Below are positions 27,080 to 64,000 of a DNA stretch of 64,000 nt, one piece after another. The notes under the pieces are model-generated. The model searched no databases. It had not been told where the DNA came from and saw only the letters and a program-made list of their open reading frames with translations. The stretch spans positions 186,001 to 250,000 of the forward strand of contig RSEE01000083.1 of the NCBI GenBank assembly GCA_003971905.1. Direction: 5' to 3'. How positions within the stretch are numbered: position 1 is the first letter of the stretch; each line of letters starts with the position of its first letter. This DNA comes from Moniliella sp. 'wahieum'. Taxonomy: Eukaryota. Made by a program: the position numbers and the translations under genes.

Positions 27080-29860
<2,781 letters not shown>

Positions 29861-39325: not shown

Positions 39326-41493
39326 CCGGCCGCCACGCGCTTCCCCGTAATCGATTGCCTCGGGCAATCAGACAGGCGTTTTCGCCGAAGGAAACGACGC
39401 CCCCGCAATCGCGTGTCTCAGGCGTTGCAACGGATCTATCCTGAGACGGCAGAGGAAGAGCCGGGCAGCCTGTGTTGGCTCAGACACCTCAGATTGAACG
39501 ACCATCAATCAGGCAGAACCTGAGCGGCTGAGCGCGCTGTGGCTACGCTTGCGGATCGCTAGTAGATTGGGAAGAGGAATGTCGAGGAGGTCTCGGATGA
39601 ATCATCAACACGAGCTCACTTTTATAGTAGTTGATGTCTCCATGTGGCAACGAGGAAAGCACCACAGTGACCCGGCGGAGCACGCCCTAGCAATACCACA
39701 ACCTCGACCCTTAGTGCCTGCACCATAAAACGGGTAAGCGCGGAGCTCTGGCCGAGAGATGTGGGGAAAAGTCCTACTGTTGCACAGACTGAGTTCGGGA
39801 GTAGAGAGGGTGCACAGGGTAAGGAGTTACTGATTGTGGGGACACAGACCAAGACCAAAAAGACAGGCGGACAGAGTCGGAGGTGGCGAATACGGGCGCA
39901 TATACGCTCATAGGTCGATGGGTGTTCTGAGTGGTGTCTGGTGCTGACATGTGACAGCCGGCAACATTCCCATACTGTTCTGCCTGGCATGTATGATGGG
40001 TCGAGGTTGGCCTGCACCGTCCAATGTTTCCCTGTGGTTGGCTAGGTCTTCTTCAGTTAGCTTACCTACTCAGAAGGTTTTCTTTTCTTGCAGCAATACC
40101 TGTATTTGCGTTCCAACCACCTGTATACCGCTCCCGTATATACTCGATATACTCCTCCTCTCTCTCCGCTATATCGCTGTCTGCATCGTAGAGACTGTTG
40201 TGTCTCGATTGCGTTCTGGCATACTTGCGGCGCTAAACCGGCATGCCTTGACACGGGGGGGGTCACGAAAACGGGGGAATGGAGGTGGTCGGTGGGGGAA
40301 CAAAGAGCATGAAGGGGGCAAAATGAGATCTTACTTCTTTGCTGCACTGTAAGATTTGTACGGCTACGAGACGGTTCGTCTTTTATGCCATCGTACACCA
40401 CCGTGCACCACAGAGCACACTATGGACCTTCTCTCGAGCGTGGTGAAGCTGGCACCCTGCTATGCCCAATGTTGGATTAGCTTGTCGCCCATCTGCGATG
40501 TGGAAGTCGGGACTATATATAGCCCATCAGGCGTGCTGGGTACAGCCTGGCACAGCACAGGCACTGGGGATAAGGGCTACCGGCTCGATTGGTGCTCTGG
40601 AGATTGCGAGGATGCATGTTGGGGGCGCAAGACTGAGCCACAGCGCAGCGGACGGGATTTGGGCACTGGGGCGAAAGGTCAACTGCTGAGCGGGGGTCTG
40701 AAGAGGAGGGCGGTTGCAAATGGTGGCGAGTGGTGCTCTGTGGACCGTTTTGGCTGCGCACAACGACACTACTGTCCGCCCATTCATCCCCATAATGAAA
40801 GCTTTCTTCCCTTGGATTTACTCTTAGTAGTTCTGTTCTAGTCTCCTGTAGCACTTAGCAATACTACGCACACATGCTGCACTATAACTGCGCAATATCC
40901 ACTGGATCACCCCGATTGACACATATTAACCACGAAAAATCCACTGATTACCACTGATTACATTTAGTACCACTGATTCCCACAGAAATACGACGCAGTG
41001 AGTGTCACGGGCTTATCTTCGGTTATCGACAGATACCTCTTGGGTCCACATGCAAGGACATGATGCATGGCTGCACCCAAAATTCCGGAGCGCACGTTTG
41101 CCGGCACTCCAACACTGAGGCTAATCAACGAGATGTTGCACTTGAGCGTCGGACCGTGAGCATATTCGGCGGAGACTTACGCGCTGAAGACCGGGTGAAA
41201 GCAGGCGGAAATCGATCCCATACTATACACGTACTATTATGGGTACACACTGATGCAGTCCGATCGATGAGAGGCAAATGTCGCTTTTGGATTGAAAAGG
41301 GGCGTCGAGAGGCACATAAGGGAAATCGACAGCGCCGCAGTACGGCATTGATGCGCTCCTGAAATGCCGCCCACGTCAGACGGTAGCCCATATTAACAGG
41401 CAGCGCCCACTGAGCGCAGCCGGCGAGGGTAACAATATGCAAAAGGCTGAAATGGCACAGCCACTCTATATTGATTGGCGAGGGCATCTGTCG

Positions 41494-41502
41494 ATATATA
41501 AG
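41494..41502 (+). promoter_or_regulatory. TATA box of Hsp70 copy 3 (ATATATAAG), conserved in copy 2 at ~29401-29409 (minus)
   Basis: Identical GTCGATATATAAGAG ~105-115 bp upstream of both ATGs. Confidence 0.6.
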
Positions 41503-41611
41503 AGAGTGTCGACGCCGAATTAACCATACGCACTCGCACCACATTCACCAACACCACCAGCACTCTCCCCACCACCTCCCCGCCCAGCACTTCTCCGCCT
41601 CCTCACCTACC

Positions 41612-43453
41612 ATGTCCAAAGCAATCGGTATCGATCTGGGCACCACGTACTCATGTGTTGCTGTTCTTGAGGGTGAGGACGGGGTCACGATCATTCGCAA
41701 CAGCGAGGGCAATAACACCACCCCCTCGTATGTGGCCTTCAAACATGGAGAGGCTTATTGGTGATGCGGCGTTCAAGCAGACTGCCATGAACACATCCAA
41801 TACTGTGTTTGACGCCAAACGACTTATCGGCCGCAGGTTTGACGAAGAGGTGGTCCAGGATGATATGAAGCACTGGCCTTTCAAGGTGGTTGATGAGGAC
41901 GGTCAGCCGGCAATTCAAGTTCAATACAAGGGCGATACGAAGACTTTCACTCCCGAGGAAATCTCGTCCATGGTTTTGTCCAAGATGCGCGAGACGGCCG
42001 AGGCGTACCTTGGCGGGCCTGTAAAGGACGCTGTGGTGACAGTACCTGCCTACTTCAACACCTCCCAACGCCAGGCTACCAAAGACGCTGGTACCATTGC
42101 GGGGCTCAACATCTTGGGCATTGTCAATGAGCCCACTGCAGCTGCCATGGCTTACGGGTTGGACACAATGACTGAGCGTAAACGCACTGTCCTCGTCTTT
42201 GACTTGGGTGGCGGTACGTTTGACGTATCTTTGCTTGACATCACAGAGGGCACATTTGCCGTCAAGGCCACCTCCGGTGACACCCATCTCGGTGGCGAAG
42301 ACTTTGACACCTGTCTCGTCAACCATTTTGTCGAGGAATTCAAACACAAGGAAAACAAGGACATCACATCTGATCCTCGCGCTCTTCGCCGTCTCCGTAC
42401 TTCTTGCGAGCGCGCGAAGCGCACTCTTTCCGAGGCTGAACATACCACAATCAAGATTGACTCGTTATTTCAGGGTATTGACTTTATCGCCTCTATCAGC
42501 CGGTCTCTCTTTGAGGAGTTGTGCAAAGACCTGTTTTCCCGTATCATTGGCCCTGTCGAGAGCGTCCTGCAGGACGCGAACATTAACAAAAATGACGTAA
42601 CTGACGTTGTCTTGGTTGGGGGGTCAACAAGGATTCCTCGTGTGCAGCGCCTTCTCACGGAGTTCTTTGACGGGCGCAAACTCAGTCGCTCAATCAACCC
42701 CGACGAGGCGGTTGCCTATGCGCCGCCATCCAGGCTGCTATTCTCGCGGGTGACACCACTGAGTTAAGCCAAGAGCTGATTCTGCTCGATGTAGTCCCAC
42801 TGTCATTGGGAGTGTACCAACTCAGTGGTGTGTTTAATGCCATCATCAAACGCAATTCAACGGTGCCCACCAAGGAGGTGAAACCCTTCACAACGACTTG
42901 TGACGACCAGACTGCTATCAGATTTGCCGTGTACGAGGGTGAGCGGTCCCTCGCCGAGGAGAACCATTTTCTGGGCGCGTTCAGGCTAACTGGTATCCCC
43001 CTGCGCCCCGGGTGAGCCTACGGTTTATGTGACCTTTGACTTGGACTCCAACTCCATTCTCACGGTGTCGGCCGTTGACAAGAAGACGAACAAATCAAAA
43101 ACGATTACCATCACCGATAGTGGCCGCCTGTCAAAGGAGGACATTGCGCGCATGGTATCGAATGCCGAGAAGTACAAGCAAGATGATCACGAAGCGGTGG
43201 CACGGATTAATGCCTTAAATGAGCTGGATTCGTACGCCTGCCAATGCGCCGCTGGCTGCGTGAACATGGTACTGCGGACAAGCTCAAGCCGAAGGAAAGG
43301 GAGGTACTGGAAGCGGCGGTCAATGAGACGTTTGACTGGCACGGCGAGTACTCAACGAATGCTTCAAGGAGATGTTTGAAGAAAGGAAAACAAACCTGCA
43401 GTCCATTGCAGCCCCATCGTGCAGGCATTTGAGCAGCGGAGCCGGAGTGTGTA
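41612..43453 (+). CDS. HSP70: Divergent SSA-type Hsp70, copy 3
   Basis: [16 protein letters not shown]; long ORF 41655-42767 with [34 protein letters not shown] and [13 protein letters not shown] contains VYEGERS. Ends ...[20 protein letters not shown] after frame repair. Confidence 0.94.
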
Positions 43454-56752: not shown

Positions 56753-58947
56753 ATGACTCGACTGACTCCGGACATGCGACTACCAGTGTCGTCGATCACC
56801 TTCCGCCACTGCTCGTCCGCCCGCCTTCCCCTCGATCCTCTCCGCACGCCCACCTCCGCCCTGCGCCCACACACCCCACCCCTGCTTCCCGCACCGAGGG
56901 ACGGCCACCCCCTTTCCTTTCTCGGGACCCACGCGCCGCTGCCTTCGCCTCGACTTGGACGTCAGCCTCCACCTCAGCAACTTCCGCGCCTCGAGCCTCT
57001 TCTCCCCCCACCTCGGTCCCCCCCTGTCCCTCGTGACATGAGAACGCGCACCGACATCGACCTCGGCCTCGAACCGTCGAGGCGCAGATCGCCAGCTGCT
57101 CGACGATACGTGTCAATGGATTCAGGCTACCCGCCCGGTTCTCTCCCCGGACCTGGAGCCGCAGCCTGACGCGGACGGGAAGCGTCCTCCCTCCGCGGCG
57201 AAAACTGCAGCGAACGAGTGGAAGTGAGAGGCGCGTATTGCCGGTGGGGTGGGTGCGTGACAAGCTGGCCGGCCGTGCTTTCGGACGACATGGATGTTTC
57301 GCTTTCGAGTTTGACCGGCTTCCATTTCGCCCACTATCTCAAGCTCTACTGAATCGGACACGTTCCATCGTCTCGGCTCTGTGCCCAGATCGCCGCTCTT
57401 CCCGACCAGCATGGCAAGGCGCAATGGGGATCATTAGCAAGATTGAAGCCAACCCCGAGCAGAGCAAAAACCTAGAGACTGCCACTGTGGGTGTGCTGGG
57501 CCGATCGCTCGACTTTGTCAACCTGCGCAAGGAAACGTACCTCAAGGACAGTCGGATCCCGATCCAAGAATTTGGTACGCCCGTCGAGGATGCCCAACGG
57601 CGGGATTGCACCATCAACGCACTTTTCTACAATGTGCACACGCACCAGGTGAGGACATGACTGGCAAGGGCTGTTGGACTTGTCGCGCGGCTGCATACGT
57701 ACCCCCTCGAACCGTTCCAAACCTTCGAGGACGACCCGCTGCGAATCCTGCGCTGTGTCCGCTTTGCCAGCCGATTCGCATTCAACTTCCACCAGGACAT
57801 TACCGACGTCCTGCTCGGCCCGCGTGGCACGCACTTACGACAAGAGTTGGCCTCCAAGATCAGTCGGGAACGGATTGGGATTGAGACGGACAAGATGCTG
57901 CGCGGGCCATACCCTGGGATTGCGTTGTATCAGTTGCATAGGTTGCATCTGTTCCCCGTCGTCTTCCGCCCGCCTCCGGAGCAGGACGGCTCGCCTTCTC
58001 CCTTGTATTTGCCCAACGCTACCACCGAGCCTGTTGCGCCATTGCGCTCGGATCAAGAGGCAGTGGCGATCTCCGAGCGATTGGAAGGCATCTGGCGCCG
58101 TGCAGCGCGAGCCCGCGAAAAGGGTACCCCGCCTCCGTCTCGGATCGCGCCTCTGTTTGATCCGGAGCAGCGACGCCGGCTGTTTTATGCCGCGGCTCTG
58201 TGGCCGCTGGTGGGGCTGGTGACATGGACCCATCCTGCCGAGACCAAGGCGAAAGCTGGACAGAAGACGGCGAAGGCGAAGCGCAGTTTGATCTCGGCCA
58301 CTGAGAGCGTGTTGCTGGAAGGCCTCAAGCTCGGGGCGAAGCAGACCAAGGAACCTGTCGAGGCACTGTTCAAAGCGCTTGTGGCGCTCGCAGAGTTCAA
58401 GGCGTGGGAAACCGCGGCGGTGCAACGAGGCGATCAGCTGGAAACGATCCAGACCCAACTCTACTTTATGTTGCGCAAACCCTGCTTTGTCAACCCGACA
58501 TACTCCCTTTCCCTGTTTCGTGCGGCCTTCTTCTTTGCTGCGCTCGCCCATGCCCATTCCGGGTCCACGGACTCCGACTCCGACTCCGGCTCCGACTCCC
58601 ACCTCGCCCCCACCGCGGACCTGGACCGCTGGTGGACCTGGATCGAGGAGCTGGATATGGTAAGGCGGGCGAGCGAACGACCACTGTTGAATGGTCTCCA
58701 GATCCAGCAGCTGGTCGGCTTTGCGCCAGGCCCACTCATCCCGGCCATCCAACACCACGTGCTGGAATGGCAATTGTGGAACGTCGCTGCTGACGCTGCC
58801 GCCGGCCCGTCTGCCTCCGCCGTCGCAGCAGCCCAAACGTGGTTCCGTACCGCCTGGGACGCAGGCACCGTCTTACCCCCCGACGAGTGGCACGCGCTCA
58901 GGCAGCCGCGGCAGCCAAGGGCGCAAAGAAGACCAAAAAAAACTTAA
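56753..58947 (+). CDS. CCA1: tRNA nucleotidyltransferase (class II CCA-adding enzyme)
   Basis: RIAGGWVRDKL, DDMD (DxD), EANPEQSKNLETA, DFVNLRKETY..DSRIP, DAQRRDCTINALFYN, FEDDPLRILRCVRFASRF and KISRERIGIE. Confidence 0.94.
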
Positions 58948-59198: not shown

Positions 59199-60534
59199 TC
59201 ACGCAAATGCCCCAGAGGCAAGATGCTGCGATGGATCCGAGTTCGGGTTCTGAGCGTACTGGCTAACGGTGGGAACCCGGGAGGCAAACAGGACAAAGCA
59301 CACAAGGTGGGGGTGGTTATGACCAAACATCTTCATCCTCGTGCCAGTTGTATCGTGTGATGTTCGTCTCGACACCGCCACGCCATACCATGCTAGCGGC
59401 TCGGCGTACCCTTTGGGTACAGATGCACGGAGGTTAGGCTGCTCTTCCAGATTGCTGATACCGGCCGAGCGTGAAGATGGCTTCACGGTGTCTCTACGGG
59501 GCATCCGTGTTGCGATTGCGGTTATTCCCGCGTTTGTTGGTATGGGGGTGACCGCCGTGGGAGCCAGTCTCGCAATCGGGAGCCGCTGGGAGAAGCGCAA
59601 TGTCTTGTTGACTTCTTCCATGCTCAGGACTCTAGACGAAGACGGTCCTTAGGGTCACGCAGACCCCCGATAAGAATGCGGCGGTAATGTTCGTCGCCGG
59701 CCGGGCAGATGCAGTTGATCCGGTGTTGAAGCTGGGTCATCTCGGATAGATACTCGCTCCCACTCCGTCGGGTTTGCCAGCAGTGGAGATGGCGGACACT
59801 CAGCTCGTGGAATCTCACGCTGTCTACATTACCGTATCGGTTGCGCAGGACGCGAAGCAGGTCGTGTGTAGTGTCGACGTTGCCCTCGTCGATGATGAGG
59901 AAGCGAACGTCGAGGGGGAGGCGGTACAACAGCAGGTTCGTTAGGTGCATGTCGAGGAATTGGTCGTATTGGTCCGACGAGCGACCGGATTGGACAATTT
60001 CTTTGACGATGGGGTGGATGCGGTGCAAAATGTCGACGATAAAGGATTCCCAGGTCACGTATTCGACGGGATCGTTCAAAATAGTCTTGAAAGTGTTGTT
60101 GAGACGCTCGATCTCCTTTCCCGCTCCTTCAACGCGTAGCGGAGGTCAGCCCTGTCCTCGCTCGTGAGCGCGGGGGCTGCTCGGGTAGATCCCGACTTGG
60201 CCAGTTCGGTGAGCACATAGTCCTCCAGCGCATTGGTGAGCGTGTAGATCCACTGGTCCATTCCGCCGGGGGCTTTCTTGTTGTTCGACGCGTACATCGC
60301 AGTGTGTGCCTCGGTCGCCGTCGAGCGGCACAGGGCATGCAAGCTCTCGCTGCTCGTTTGCGGAAACAGACGAACGCTTGCCAGGAGGTTGGCTCCAGCA
60401 TCAGCGTGGACCTGTTGCCAGAGGGGGTCCGAGGCGGGGGTGGAGGCGGACTCGCTGTGGACGGTGTGCTGCACATGTTTGGTTGAAGCAGCACCGGGGG
60501 GCGGCGTCTGCTGCATGGCTTCGTTGGCAGACAT
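59199..60534 (-). mobile_element. Stand-alone Ty1/copia Gag-like ORF (~440 aa after two 1-nt repairs), no pol and no LTRs
   Basis: LNDPVEYVTWESFIVDIL resembles the copia Gag N-terminal L-x-G-x-NY-x-x-W motif. HDLLRVLRNRYG...RFHEL...Q...SGSEYLSEMTQLQHRI...ILIGGL...LSMEEV follows the Retrotran_gag_2/UBN2 pattern. A degenerate knuckle-like TRMKMFGHNHPHLVC lies near the C-terminus. Confidence 0.65.
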
Positions 60535-61007
60535 GGTGGTGGTGGAATTTGGGGGGGGACTAGTGACCAGGGACGTGGGCACGCCAGGACTCGGTCAGTG
60601 CGGGGCAGTCGGTGACGCGTGATGCGTGACGAGCCAAGGCATGCATCATGCATCATGCACCATGCACGGGGCGGGGGATATCAGTCACACGCCACGTCAC
60701 GTGGTCGTGCCCGTGAGCATGCGTAGGGTTAGCGCTTTGCTTGAGCGCAATTCGATCGGCACCTCTGCTCTTGTTCGCGCCATCGGCCCGCCATCGCATA
60801 AGCAACCCTCATTGATCACCCATCACCCAACGCGCCAGCCACCCCCACCGCTCGGCCCTGCCACCACCCGCACCCGCACCACCTTCCCCGCTTGCAACCC
60901 CTTGCTAGCACCCGCTACGCCGCCCTCGCCGCCCCAAAAGTCAGCCCCCCCTTCTTCCTCCCTCGCAACTCCAACACCTGCAGCTGTCACCCCCCCAGTT
61001 ACGCGCC

Positions 61008-61338
61008 ATGCCGATGCCCGCAAGCCCAACGTAAACGAGATGAAGCTTCGCCGCCTCACCGAGAACAATGCGCGGCTTCAGGAGGACCTGCGTCGGCCGC
61101 GCATCAAGGTTTCTGAAGCCAGCCAATCGTACGTGGATCTGCTCCTCTGGTTGTGCTTTGCGATCTGCCATCTAACCCCGCTTGGCTACTTTTGGCTGCC
61201 CATCAACCCAGCTTGGTGGCCTACTGCCAAGCCACGCACGACCCCCTCATCCCATCCGTTTGGGGTACTGTCGACAAGAAGGACGATCCCTATGCCCCGA
61301 AGCAATCTACTGCCGGATGCGAGTGCGTCGTCATGTGA
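61008..61338 (+). CDS. STE18: Heterotrimeric G-protein gamma subunit
   Basis: EMKLRRLTENNARLQEDLRRPRIKVSEASQS, intron 61129-61211, then LVAYCQATHDPLIPSVWG...DPY...CECVVM* (GGL domain plus CaaX). Confidence 0.93.
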
Positions 61339-63485: not shown

Positions 63486-64000
63486 ATGCGCGTCTTTGGC
63501 GCCCACGACGGCGCGCTCCTCTCTGTGGACCAGCCGCTGGCTGCCTTCCCCACCACCAGCGCCCTCGCCGACGTCGTCGCTCTCGCCACCGGCATCGTAG
63601 CCGACGCAGTCATCCTCCTCACCCAGGACGGCGTGCAAGTAACGGACGAGCTGCTGCCCCAGCTGCTGGCCGAGCCCAGCGCCGACCCCGATCTGTTTGT
63701 CTTTTCTCGCCTCATCTTCTCTGCCGAGCCAGAGACGGTCGCGCCGTCGCTCCAGAGCGCGGTGGTGCTCCAGCCTCGGCTGCCTAGTACGTTTGCTCAC
63801 CTCTCTCTTGCCTGACAGGCACGGCGTGCGACCAGGCTCTGACTCTGACTCTGACTCTGACTCTGACTCTGACTCTGACTCTGACTCTGACTCTGACTCT
63901 GACTCTGACTCTGACTCTGACTCTGACTCTGACTCCTCTGCCTCACAGCCATCCCTATCTTCCGCCCACCGACGCCCAACGCGCTGCACGAGTTGGTGAC
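63486..64000 (+). CDS. ATG11: Autophagy scaffold Atg11, 5' end (runs off the right edge)
   Basis: MRVFGAHDGALL...VVALATGIVADAVILLTQDGVQV...LFVFSR matches the pattern of the ubiquitin-like N-terminus of fungal Atg11 as I recall it. Intron 63787-63948, then an open frame IPIFRPPTPNALHELV. Confidence 0.7.
63837..63935 (+). repeat. (GACTCT)~16 hexanucleotide microsatellite inside the first ATG11 intron
   Basis: Perfect array, bounded by the GTACGT donor at 63787 and the CTCACAG acceptor at 63948. Confidence 0.95.

Follow-up and report, generated by a model that had tools for sequence, protein, structure and literature searches.

A lone Ty1/copia gag between CCA1 and a G-protein gamma gene in Moniliella sp. 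'wahieum' as a candidate host-kept capsid gene

Genes and reading frames at the locus

The window analyzed here, i.e., the whole stretch of 64,000 nucleotides taken from contig RSEE01000083.1 of Moniliella sp. 'wahieum', carries on its minus strand a gag gene that lies head-to-head with the gene for a G-protein gamma subunit (PF00631) and tail-to-tail with CCA1, the arrangement that the first-pass annotation had described. The PF00631 score of the G-gamma gene was 24.6 bits, under the cut-off of 27.1. The best named matches of CCA1 were Malassezia and Ceraceosorus proteins, and as these reached only 36–42% identity, the host is a smut-related basidiomycete without a near database relative. The features of the locus are as follows:

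57661..58947 (+), 3' part of CCA1 (tRNA nucleotidyltransferase), the convergent neighbour, used as purifying-selection control
59199..59493 (-), rest of the third open reading frame of the first-pass annotation, not gag; similarity to pol or LTR absent; interpreted as 3' untranslated region or intergenic sequence
59494..59559 (-), short basic tail with the stop codon (TAG in this copy, TAA in that of the other haplotype)
59560..59827 (-), capsid C-lobe (CA-CTD) with its last helix, which lies past two breaks; match to the Drt2 CA-CTD
59609..60125 (-), three one-base breaks (~60124, ~59629, ~59609), in the window copy only
59828..60130 (-), capsid N-lobe (CA-NTD), model residues 1–101; 55/96 residues identical to the element
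60139..60534 (-), Gag N-terminal part: CCACC-ATG start context, a disordered stretch of ~35 residues and the three-helix domain usual for Gag in this copia family
60535..61000 (no strand), divergent spacer between gag and the G-gamma gene; LTR remnant absent
61037..61138 (+), first coding stretch of the G-protein gamma subunit (STE18-like), the divergent neighbour; PF00631 at E 2.5e-5

Three abutting minus-strand frames (60076-60594, 59624-60145, and 59199-59648 in the open reading frame list of the window) are present as claimed, and one-nucleotide shifts of the kind proposed to join them are common throughout the assembly, the neighbouring CCA1 being broken as well. The assembly, at 69.5 Mb, appears to contain both haplotypes, which differ by 3–6%, and a second gag copy, on contig C6, has the same two neighbours, CCA1 and the G-gamma gene (2/2 haplotypes). 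The three breaks of the window copy are absent from C6, and the five small gaps of C6, with breaks at ~60000, ~60176, and 60422-60450, are absent from the window: across ~347 codons no lesion is common to both haplotypes. Near-identical young copies of the source element, described below, differ by 3–42 gaps but by 2–10 substitutions per 5.3 kb. Because CCA1 is as often broken and the young copies differ mostly by gaps, we read the one-base gaps as assembly errors and most of the substitutions as real.

Comparison with the other haplotype also changed the extent of the gene. Relative to C6, the window copy has two one-base gaps at ~59629 and ~59609, within 20 bp of each other; the C6 capsid frame continues into a frame that matches the last capsid helix of the element, with its stop codon at the position corresponding to 59494-59496. 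The gene therefore comprises ~347 codons instead of the ~440 amino acids first assigned to it, most of the third frame (59199-59621) falls outside the protein, and the distance to the end of CCA1 becomes ~550 bp rather than ~250 bp. The position of the stop codon is kept (TAG in the window, TAA in C6), and the match to the element runs out near 59505. Between 59199 and 59493, the gag frame showed 1.5 synonymous versus 8.5 non-synonymous changes between haplotypes, and no match to an eroded Gag tail or protease was obtained past the stop in three frames (P 0.15–0.63). The CCHC zinc knuckle is common, though not universal, in Ty1/copia Gag; here it is absent in every frame of 59199-59650 and missing in the Gag of the source element too, and the reading of a 440-residue protein ending in an eroded knuckle was dropped in favour of the frame of the other haplotype with its stop at 59494.

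In the spacer 60535..61000, the haplotypes differ at 11 of 377 sites, and from position only a promoter common to gag and the G-gamma gene is plausible. By eye, the ATG lying closest upstream of the G-gamma domain is not in frame with it in either haplotype (window 60718-61000), and a candidate intron from ~60722 to ~60998 would place the start of that gene near 60718, less than 200 bp from the gag start. No tRNA gene was found in the 64-kb window. Elsewhere in it, a segment of ~2.3 kb occurs in inverted copies that are ~80% alike (27258-29549 and 41052-43447), with extra tandem copies in the other haplotype, and Ser-Asp-type hexamer repeats occur inside CCA1 (58566-58600, where the other haplotype has 48 additional bases) and, as an uninterrupted perfect repeat, at the end of the window (63837-63932).

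Copia origin and capsid fold of the lone gag

All 22 candidates of a DNA search of the genome matched, namely the locus itself, one copy of 94% identity on C6 and 20 copies at 66–67%. Each of the 12 copies examined among these 20 is a 5.27-kb element with a pair of LTRs of ~212 bp that are 98.6–100% identical, and by this measure the family is young and recently expanded. One element copy encodes an intact Gag followed, after an in-frame stop, by a Pol of 1202 residues, in which the domains Pol_BBD, rve, SH3, and RVT_2 follow the copia order (PR-IN-RT-RH order plus LTRs). The gag and pol of this family lie in one frame, parted by a single TAG (L030:2595-2597, element on C100). By sequence, the lone gag encodes a Ty1/copia Gag: identity to the element Gag amounts to 52% in the N-terminal part and 58% in the capsid. 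The ~140 N-terminal residues, which had been described as novel, share 45–52% identity with the N-terminus of Gag in the active family, the start codons being aligned; the idea of a novel extension was abandoned, as this is the ordinary Gag N-terminus of this copia family.

The remainder of the element is gone. Neither the Pol nor the LTR of the source family has a match in the window (best E 0.77 for pol and 0.13 for the LTR), no LTR pair flanks the gene in a repeat search or in a comparison of the flanks (P 0.14), and LTR plus leader did not match the DNA upstream of gag (P 0.76). The first-pass view of a gag without the rest of an element was thus confirmed, and the loss of LTR and pol is common to both haplotypes. 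None of the marks of an autonomous or TR-GAG element (LTR pair, pol, multiple dispersed copies) was found at the locus. No sister closer than the 67% family occurs among the 22 DNA matches, and divergence from the active family reaches a dS of ~1.0 and a dN of 0.34–0.39, with branch lengths of 0.50 for the lone gag and 0.21 for the element. The lack of a closer sister copy together with this dS fits an old insertion; its age lies beyond direct dating, but both LTRs are lost as well. Searches for relatives confirmed 0/306 and 0/153 metagenome candidates and, outside this genome, 0/324 longer-protein candidates and none of 37 profile matches; the one protein match found, a 95%-identical Gag, is of the element only. 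No published lone copia gag of Ustilaginomycotina was found, as judged on titles and abstract openings.

The Gag-like core noticed in the first pass was recovered by PF17241 (E 6e-5; 23.3 bits versus a cut-off of 23.5) on the middle frame, which alone scores among the three gag frames in the Pfam scan, and by the capsid fold. The predicted structure of the middle piece consists of ten helices (pLDDT 90) and according to this model the core is a two-lobed capsid. Foldseek returned nothing at E <= 0.001, PNMA2 and Copia capsids being ranked first. In a wide structure search, the top 21/21 rows were capsid-type proteins, among them the Copia capsid (Z 9.2, rmsd 5.5, 149 aligned), dArc1 (Z 8.1) and the Drt2 CA-CTD 9rxy (Z 7.7, rmsd 2.0, 65 residues aligned), although Z values of 7.7–9.2 are modest for helical proteins. 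A profile built from six gag cores retrieved the 37 proteins mentioned above, and 20 of the 25 scanned pass the copia Gag family PF14223. Besides the capsid, the model of the element Gag contains an N-domain of three helices as well as a long linker helix; for this three-helix bundle generic fold matches only (best Z 7.9) and no usable Atlas match were obtained, and such generic matches carry no weight on novelty. The C-lobe shares 40/66 residues with the element in the window and 51/87 in the other haplotype (~59%).

Selection between haplotypes and other relics in the genome

The haplotypes were compared by codon, with four bases around each gap excluded; the null took its weights from the local spectrum of substitutions (533 changes among 16,021 sites). 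For the whole gag, 12 synonymous and 18 non-synonymous changes gave an omega of 0.62 (P 0.135), or 0.58 (P 0.138) in a second framing, the five other frames ranging from 0.73 to 1.27; the CCA1 control gave 0.44 (P 0.008). Capsid plus tail reached 0.33 (P 0.013), and the capsid N-lobe, with six synonymous changes and one non-synonymous change, 0.07 (P 0.0034, or ~0.017 after five tests, the split being post hoc). The C-lobe showed four synonymous and eight non-synonymous changes (omega 0.81) and the N-terminus one and nine (omega above 1); by segment, synonymous to non-synonymous changes numbered 0:4 in the disordered start, 1:5 in the N-domain, and 1:0 in the tail. Since just 0.77 stops are expected since the haplotype split, the open frame alone proves little. 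As judged by these allele counts, purifying selection is partly shown, and for the capsid N-lobe only. The proposal that the host retains the gene stands at a moderate level: the N-lobe and the intact frame in both haplotypes speak for it, the whole-gene omega does not.

The lone gag is no one-off: at least eight other gag-bearing copia relics, some of them evolving neutrally, lie at allelic loci in this genome. A protein search of the genome, which favours intact frames, gave 136 matches; 29 weaker ones were fetched, and eight relic loci were paired with their alleles (L064, L068, and L070 were left out). The pol relics pooled to an omega of 1.00 over 117 changes, which validates the null. 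The gag of the eight relics pooled to 0.70 (P 0.018), with mixed individual values: four relics gave 0.22, 0.32, 0.39, and 0.58, the other four 0.95, 1.01, 1.28, and 2.86. In two relics with recognizable LTR pairs, pol has accumulated shared stops in 5/490 and 8/419 codons; taken together, these two elements show 13 shared stops in 909 pol codons versus 0 in 441 gag codons (P 0.013), part of the pol stops possibly being alignment artefacts. At such rates, 3.5–6.6 stops would be expected in 347 codons, and the chance of a stop-free frame would be 0.03–0.001 if the lone gag were equally old. The eight other relics have no shared stop in 1190 capsid codons. Their N-lobe and C-lobe values (0.60 versus 0.73) differ weakly, and constraint of the N-lobe over the C-lobe as a general rule was discarded for want of a clear repeat.

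Several of these relics deserve description. L056:5960-7705 (on C7), with its allele L078, is a lone copia gag 582 codons long that includes a short peptide repeated in tandem; it is 72–75% identical in DNA to another copia family and with an allele omega of 0.39 (P 0.022), which makes it a candidate for a second kept gag; it adjoins what we take to be a dihydroorotase-like gene. L065/L059 and L062/L067 are old copia elements with diverged LTR pairs (73–89%), in which pol is deleted and stopped and gag has no shared stops (omega 0.32 and 0.58). L071:6298-7713, with allele L082, is a pol-less gag with two capsid-profile matches in one frame and an omega of 0.22 over 64 codons. A counter-example is L053:2793-3890 with allele L076, a pol-less gag relic of 86% DNA identity to an active family that has a shared stop soon after the capsid and is neutral (omega 1.28); the pol-less L057/L080 reached 0.95. 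Candidates for Piwi and RdRP were not found in the genome, a result that is uninformative on loss of RNAi since the RNase III control was equally without candidates.

Possible host retention, proposed capsid poisoning and the alternatives

On balance we lean slightly toward the view that the host keeps the lone gag as a gene, and among the possible functions we tentatively put first that of a restriction factor, a capsid poison resembling DRT2. An old Ty1/copia insertion would have been stripped of its two LTRs, of pol in its entirety and of the 3' end of gag, leaving the ~347-codon gag with its N-domain, both capsid lobes and a short basic tail. Following this, we propose that the host keeps the frame open and transcribes it, probably from the spacer common with the G-gamma gene, that the protein would co-assemble with the Gag of the related copia family and that, without the downstream Gag tail and Pol, it would spoil the virus-like particles and thereby reduce transposition, as Drt2 and p22/p18 do in yeast. 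Capsid poisoning is ranked first because a Gag without tail and Pol is a natural dominant negative. Retention of the gene is further supported by the start codon at the position of that of the element and by the kept position of the stop. Moreover, the functional DRT2 has a dN/dS of 0.84 (PMC10951436), and a weak signal is therefore to be expected of such genes.

Several observations speak against a poison. Drt2 and p22/p18 are described as poisoning particle assembly via the capsid C-lobe (PMC13709905), and in the lone gag it is this effector lobe of Drt2 and p18 that is near neutral and only ~59% identical to the living family. The source family is, furthermore, thriving, with nearly identical LTR pairs in 12/12 copies examined. 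The target of the lone gag may have been a subfamily that is now extinct, with the gene relaxing at present, or the living family may have escaped. A wider and rather doubtful extension is that the fungus keeps truncated capsid genes, about one for each lineage of copia elements, which would serve as protein-based memory of its retrotransposons and act against them; this locus would be the member for the 5.27-kb family, the recent burst would represent escape, and the C-lobe would be changing in response. Hints in this direction are the 0/1190 capsid codons with shared stops in the eight other relics, the 13 shared pol stops against none in gag within the same two elements, and the pooled omega of gag as compared to pol, all from relics retrieved by the protein search with its preference for intact frames.

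Close behind capsid poisoning ranks the possibility, somewhat less probable, of a neutral remnant: a copy from a sister subfamily, itself extinct, that was truncated, reached fixation before the split of the haplotypes and has drifted since, with its frame open by chance and its amino-acid divergence gained while it was still an element. The whole-gene omega not significantly below 1, the few stops expected since the split and the longer branch of the lone gag are all in line with this, as are the neutral pol-less gag relics L053/L076 and L057/L080, which argue against retention, and the N-lobe signal amounts to seven changes in a split chosen after seeing the data. Yet that signal survives a five-fold correction, and the capsid-plus-tail omega resembles that of CCA1. 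Moreover, a neutral remnant requires the loss of LTRs, pol and all sister copies with 347 codons left free of any shared lesion, whereas the dated pol relics have 1–2 shared stops per 100 codons.

It is unlikely, though in keeping with retention by the host, that the product is not a lattice poison but a scaffold or particle in the style of Arc, PNMA or Crtg, or an Fv1-like factor in which the N-lobe oligomerizes and the C-lobe recognizes targets. A constrained N-lobe beside a variable C-lobe is described for Fv1 (PMC3948346), the N-domain and both lobes are retained such that the modelled protein could self-assemble, and the low identity to the active family speaks against tight cognate binding. 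Contrarily, no relative was found outside the genome in the searches above, unlike the deeply conserved Crtg genes, and two alleles cannot reveal positive selection. TR-GAG elements are gag-only non-autonomous LTR elements, and descent from one, with pol lost while mobile, gag kept for its own packaging and LTRs decayed later, would account for the loss of pol beside an intact gag and has parallels in L065/L059 and L062/L067 with their LTRs, open gag and broken pol; it is nevertheless improbable given a single locus without sister copies or terminal repeats, and given that the allele omega reflects changes that postdate the insertion, by which time such selection would have ended.

Among known systems, DRT2 of Saccharomyces cerevisiae is the closest to a host-kept gag of the kind favoured here. 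Both are truncated Ty1/copia gags of ~1 kb at a fixed locus from which the rest of the element is gone, with the source family still in the species, the same CA-CTD fold and a weak purifying signal. DRT2, however, keeps the p22 half only, whereas the lone gag appears to have N-domain and both lobes in one frame and is in this respect closer to relic 1, which could encode a whole Gag-like protein of untested function (PMC10951436). Identity to the living family is ~58% here as compared to 91.5% between Drt2m and its target, and constraint falls on the N-lobe instead of the C-lobe; subfamilies 79% identical in Gag are described to show no cross-restriction (PMC13709905). Unlike DRT2, the lone gag is known from sequence alone, and its site between CCA1 and the G-gamma gene, in a window devoid of tRNA genes, and its basidiomycete host are further differences. 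The fixed locus, the decayed element and the kept open reading frame are present in 2/2 haplotypes and a CA-CTD identity above 90% is absent; because near identity to the target is lacking and expression and function are proposed, we do not file the locus as an equivalent of DRT2 but as a candidate for a lone, host-kept gag.

DRT2 of baker's yeast is the one case considered here in which a copia Gag was captured by its host and restricts the family it came from. If the reading as a capsid poison is true, the locus would be a second case, in a basidiomycete, beside a living source family and several kept gags, the trick would be general, and the drift of a capsid poison from its target could be tested at 58% as compared to 91%. 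If the lone gag is only a remnant, it warns that open-frame lone gags arise readily in this genome. In our opinion, several kept gags beside decaying pol would be more interesting than the single locus.

Other host genes of gag origin are more distant. Crtg12 and Crtg13 are described as co-opted, copia-derived gag genes of fungi and, similar to the lone gag, are single-copy genes from Ty1/copia gag (PMC8321522), but they are old and syntenic across families of Dothideomycetes, whereas the lone gag is known from one genome and lies near a living element. Fv1 of mice is likewise a lone gag-derived gene with a conserved N-terminal and a variable C-terminal part; according to the same account (PMC3948346), it differs in its retroviral origin, proven restriction and positive selection over many alleles, the lone gag being represented by the sequence of two. 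Compared with the 5.27-kb family (gag-TAG-pol in one frame, 212-bp LTRs), from whose Gag it differs in stopping ~60 codons earlier and in having neither LTR, pol nor readthrough junction, the lone gag shows homology over the whole stretch between the start codon and the last part of the capsid.
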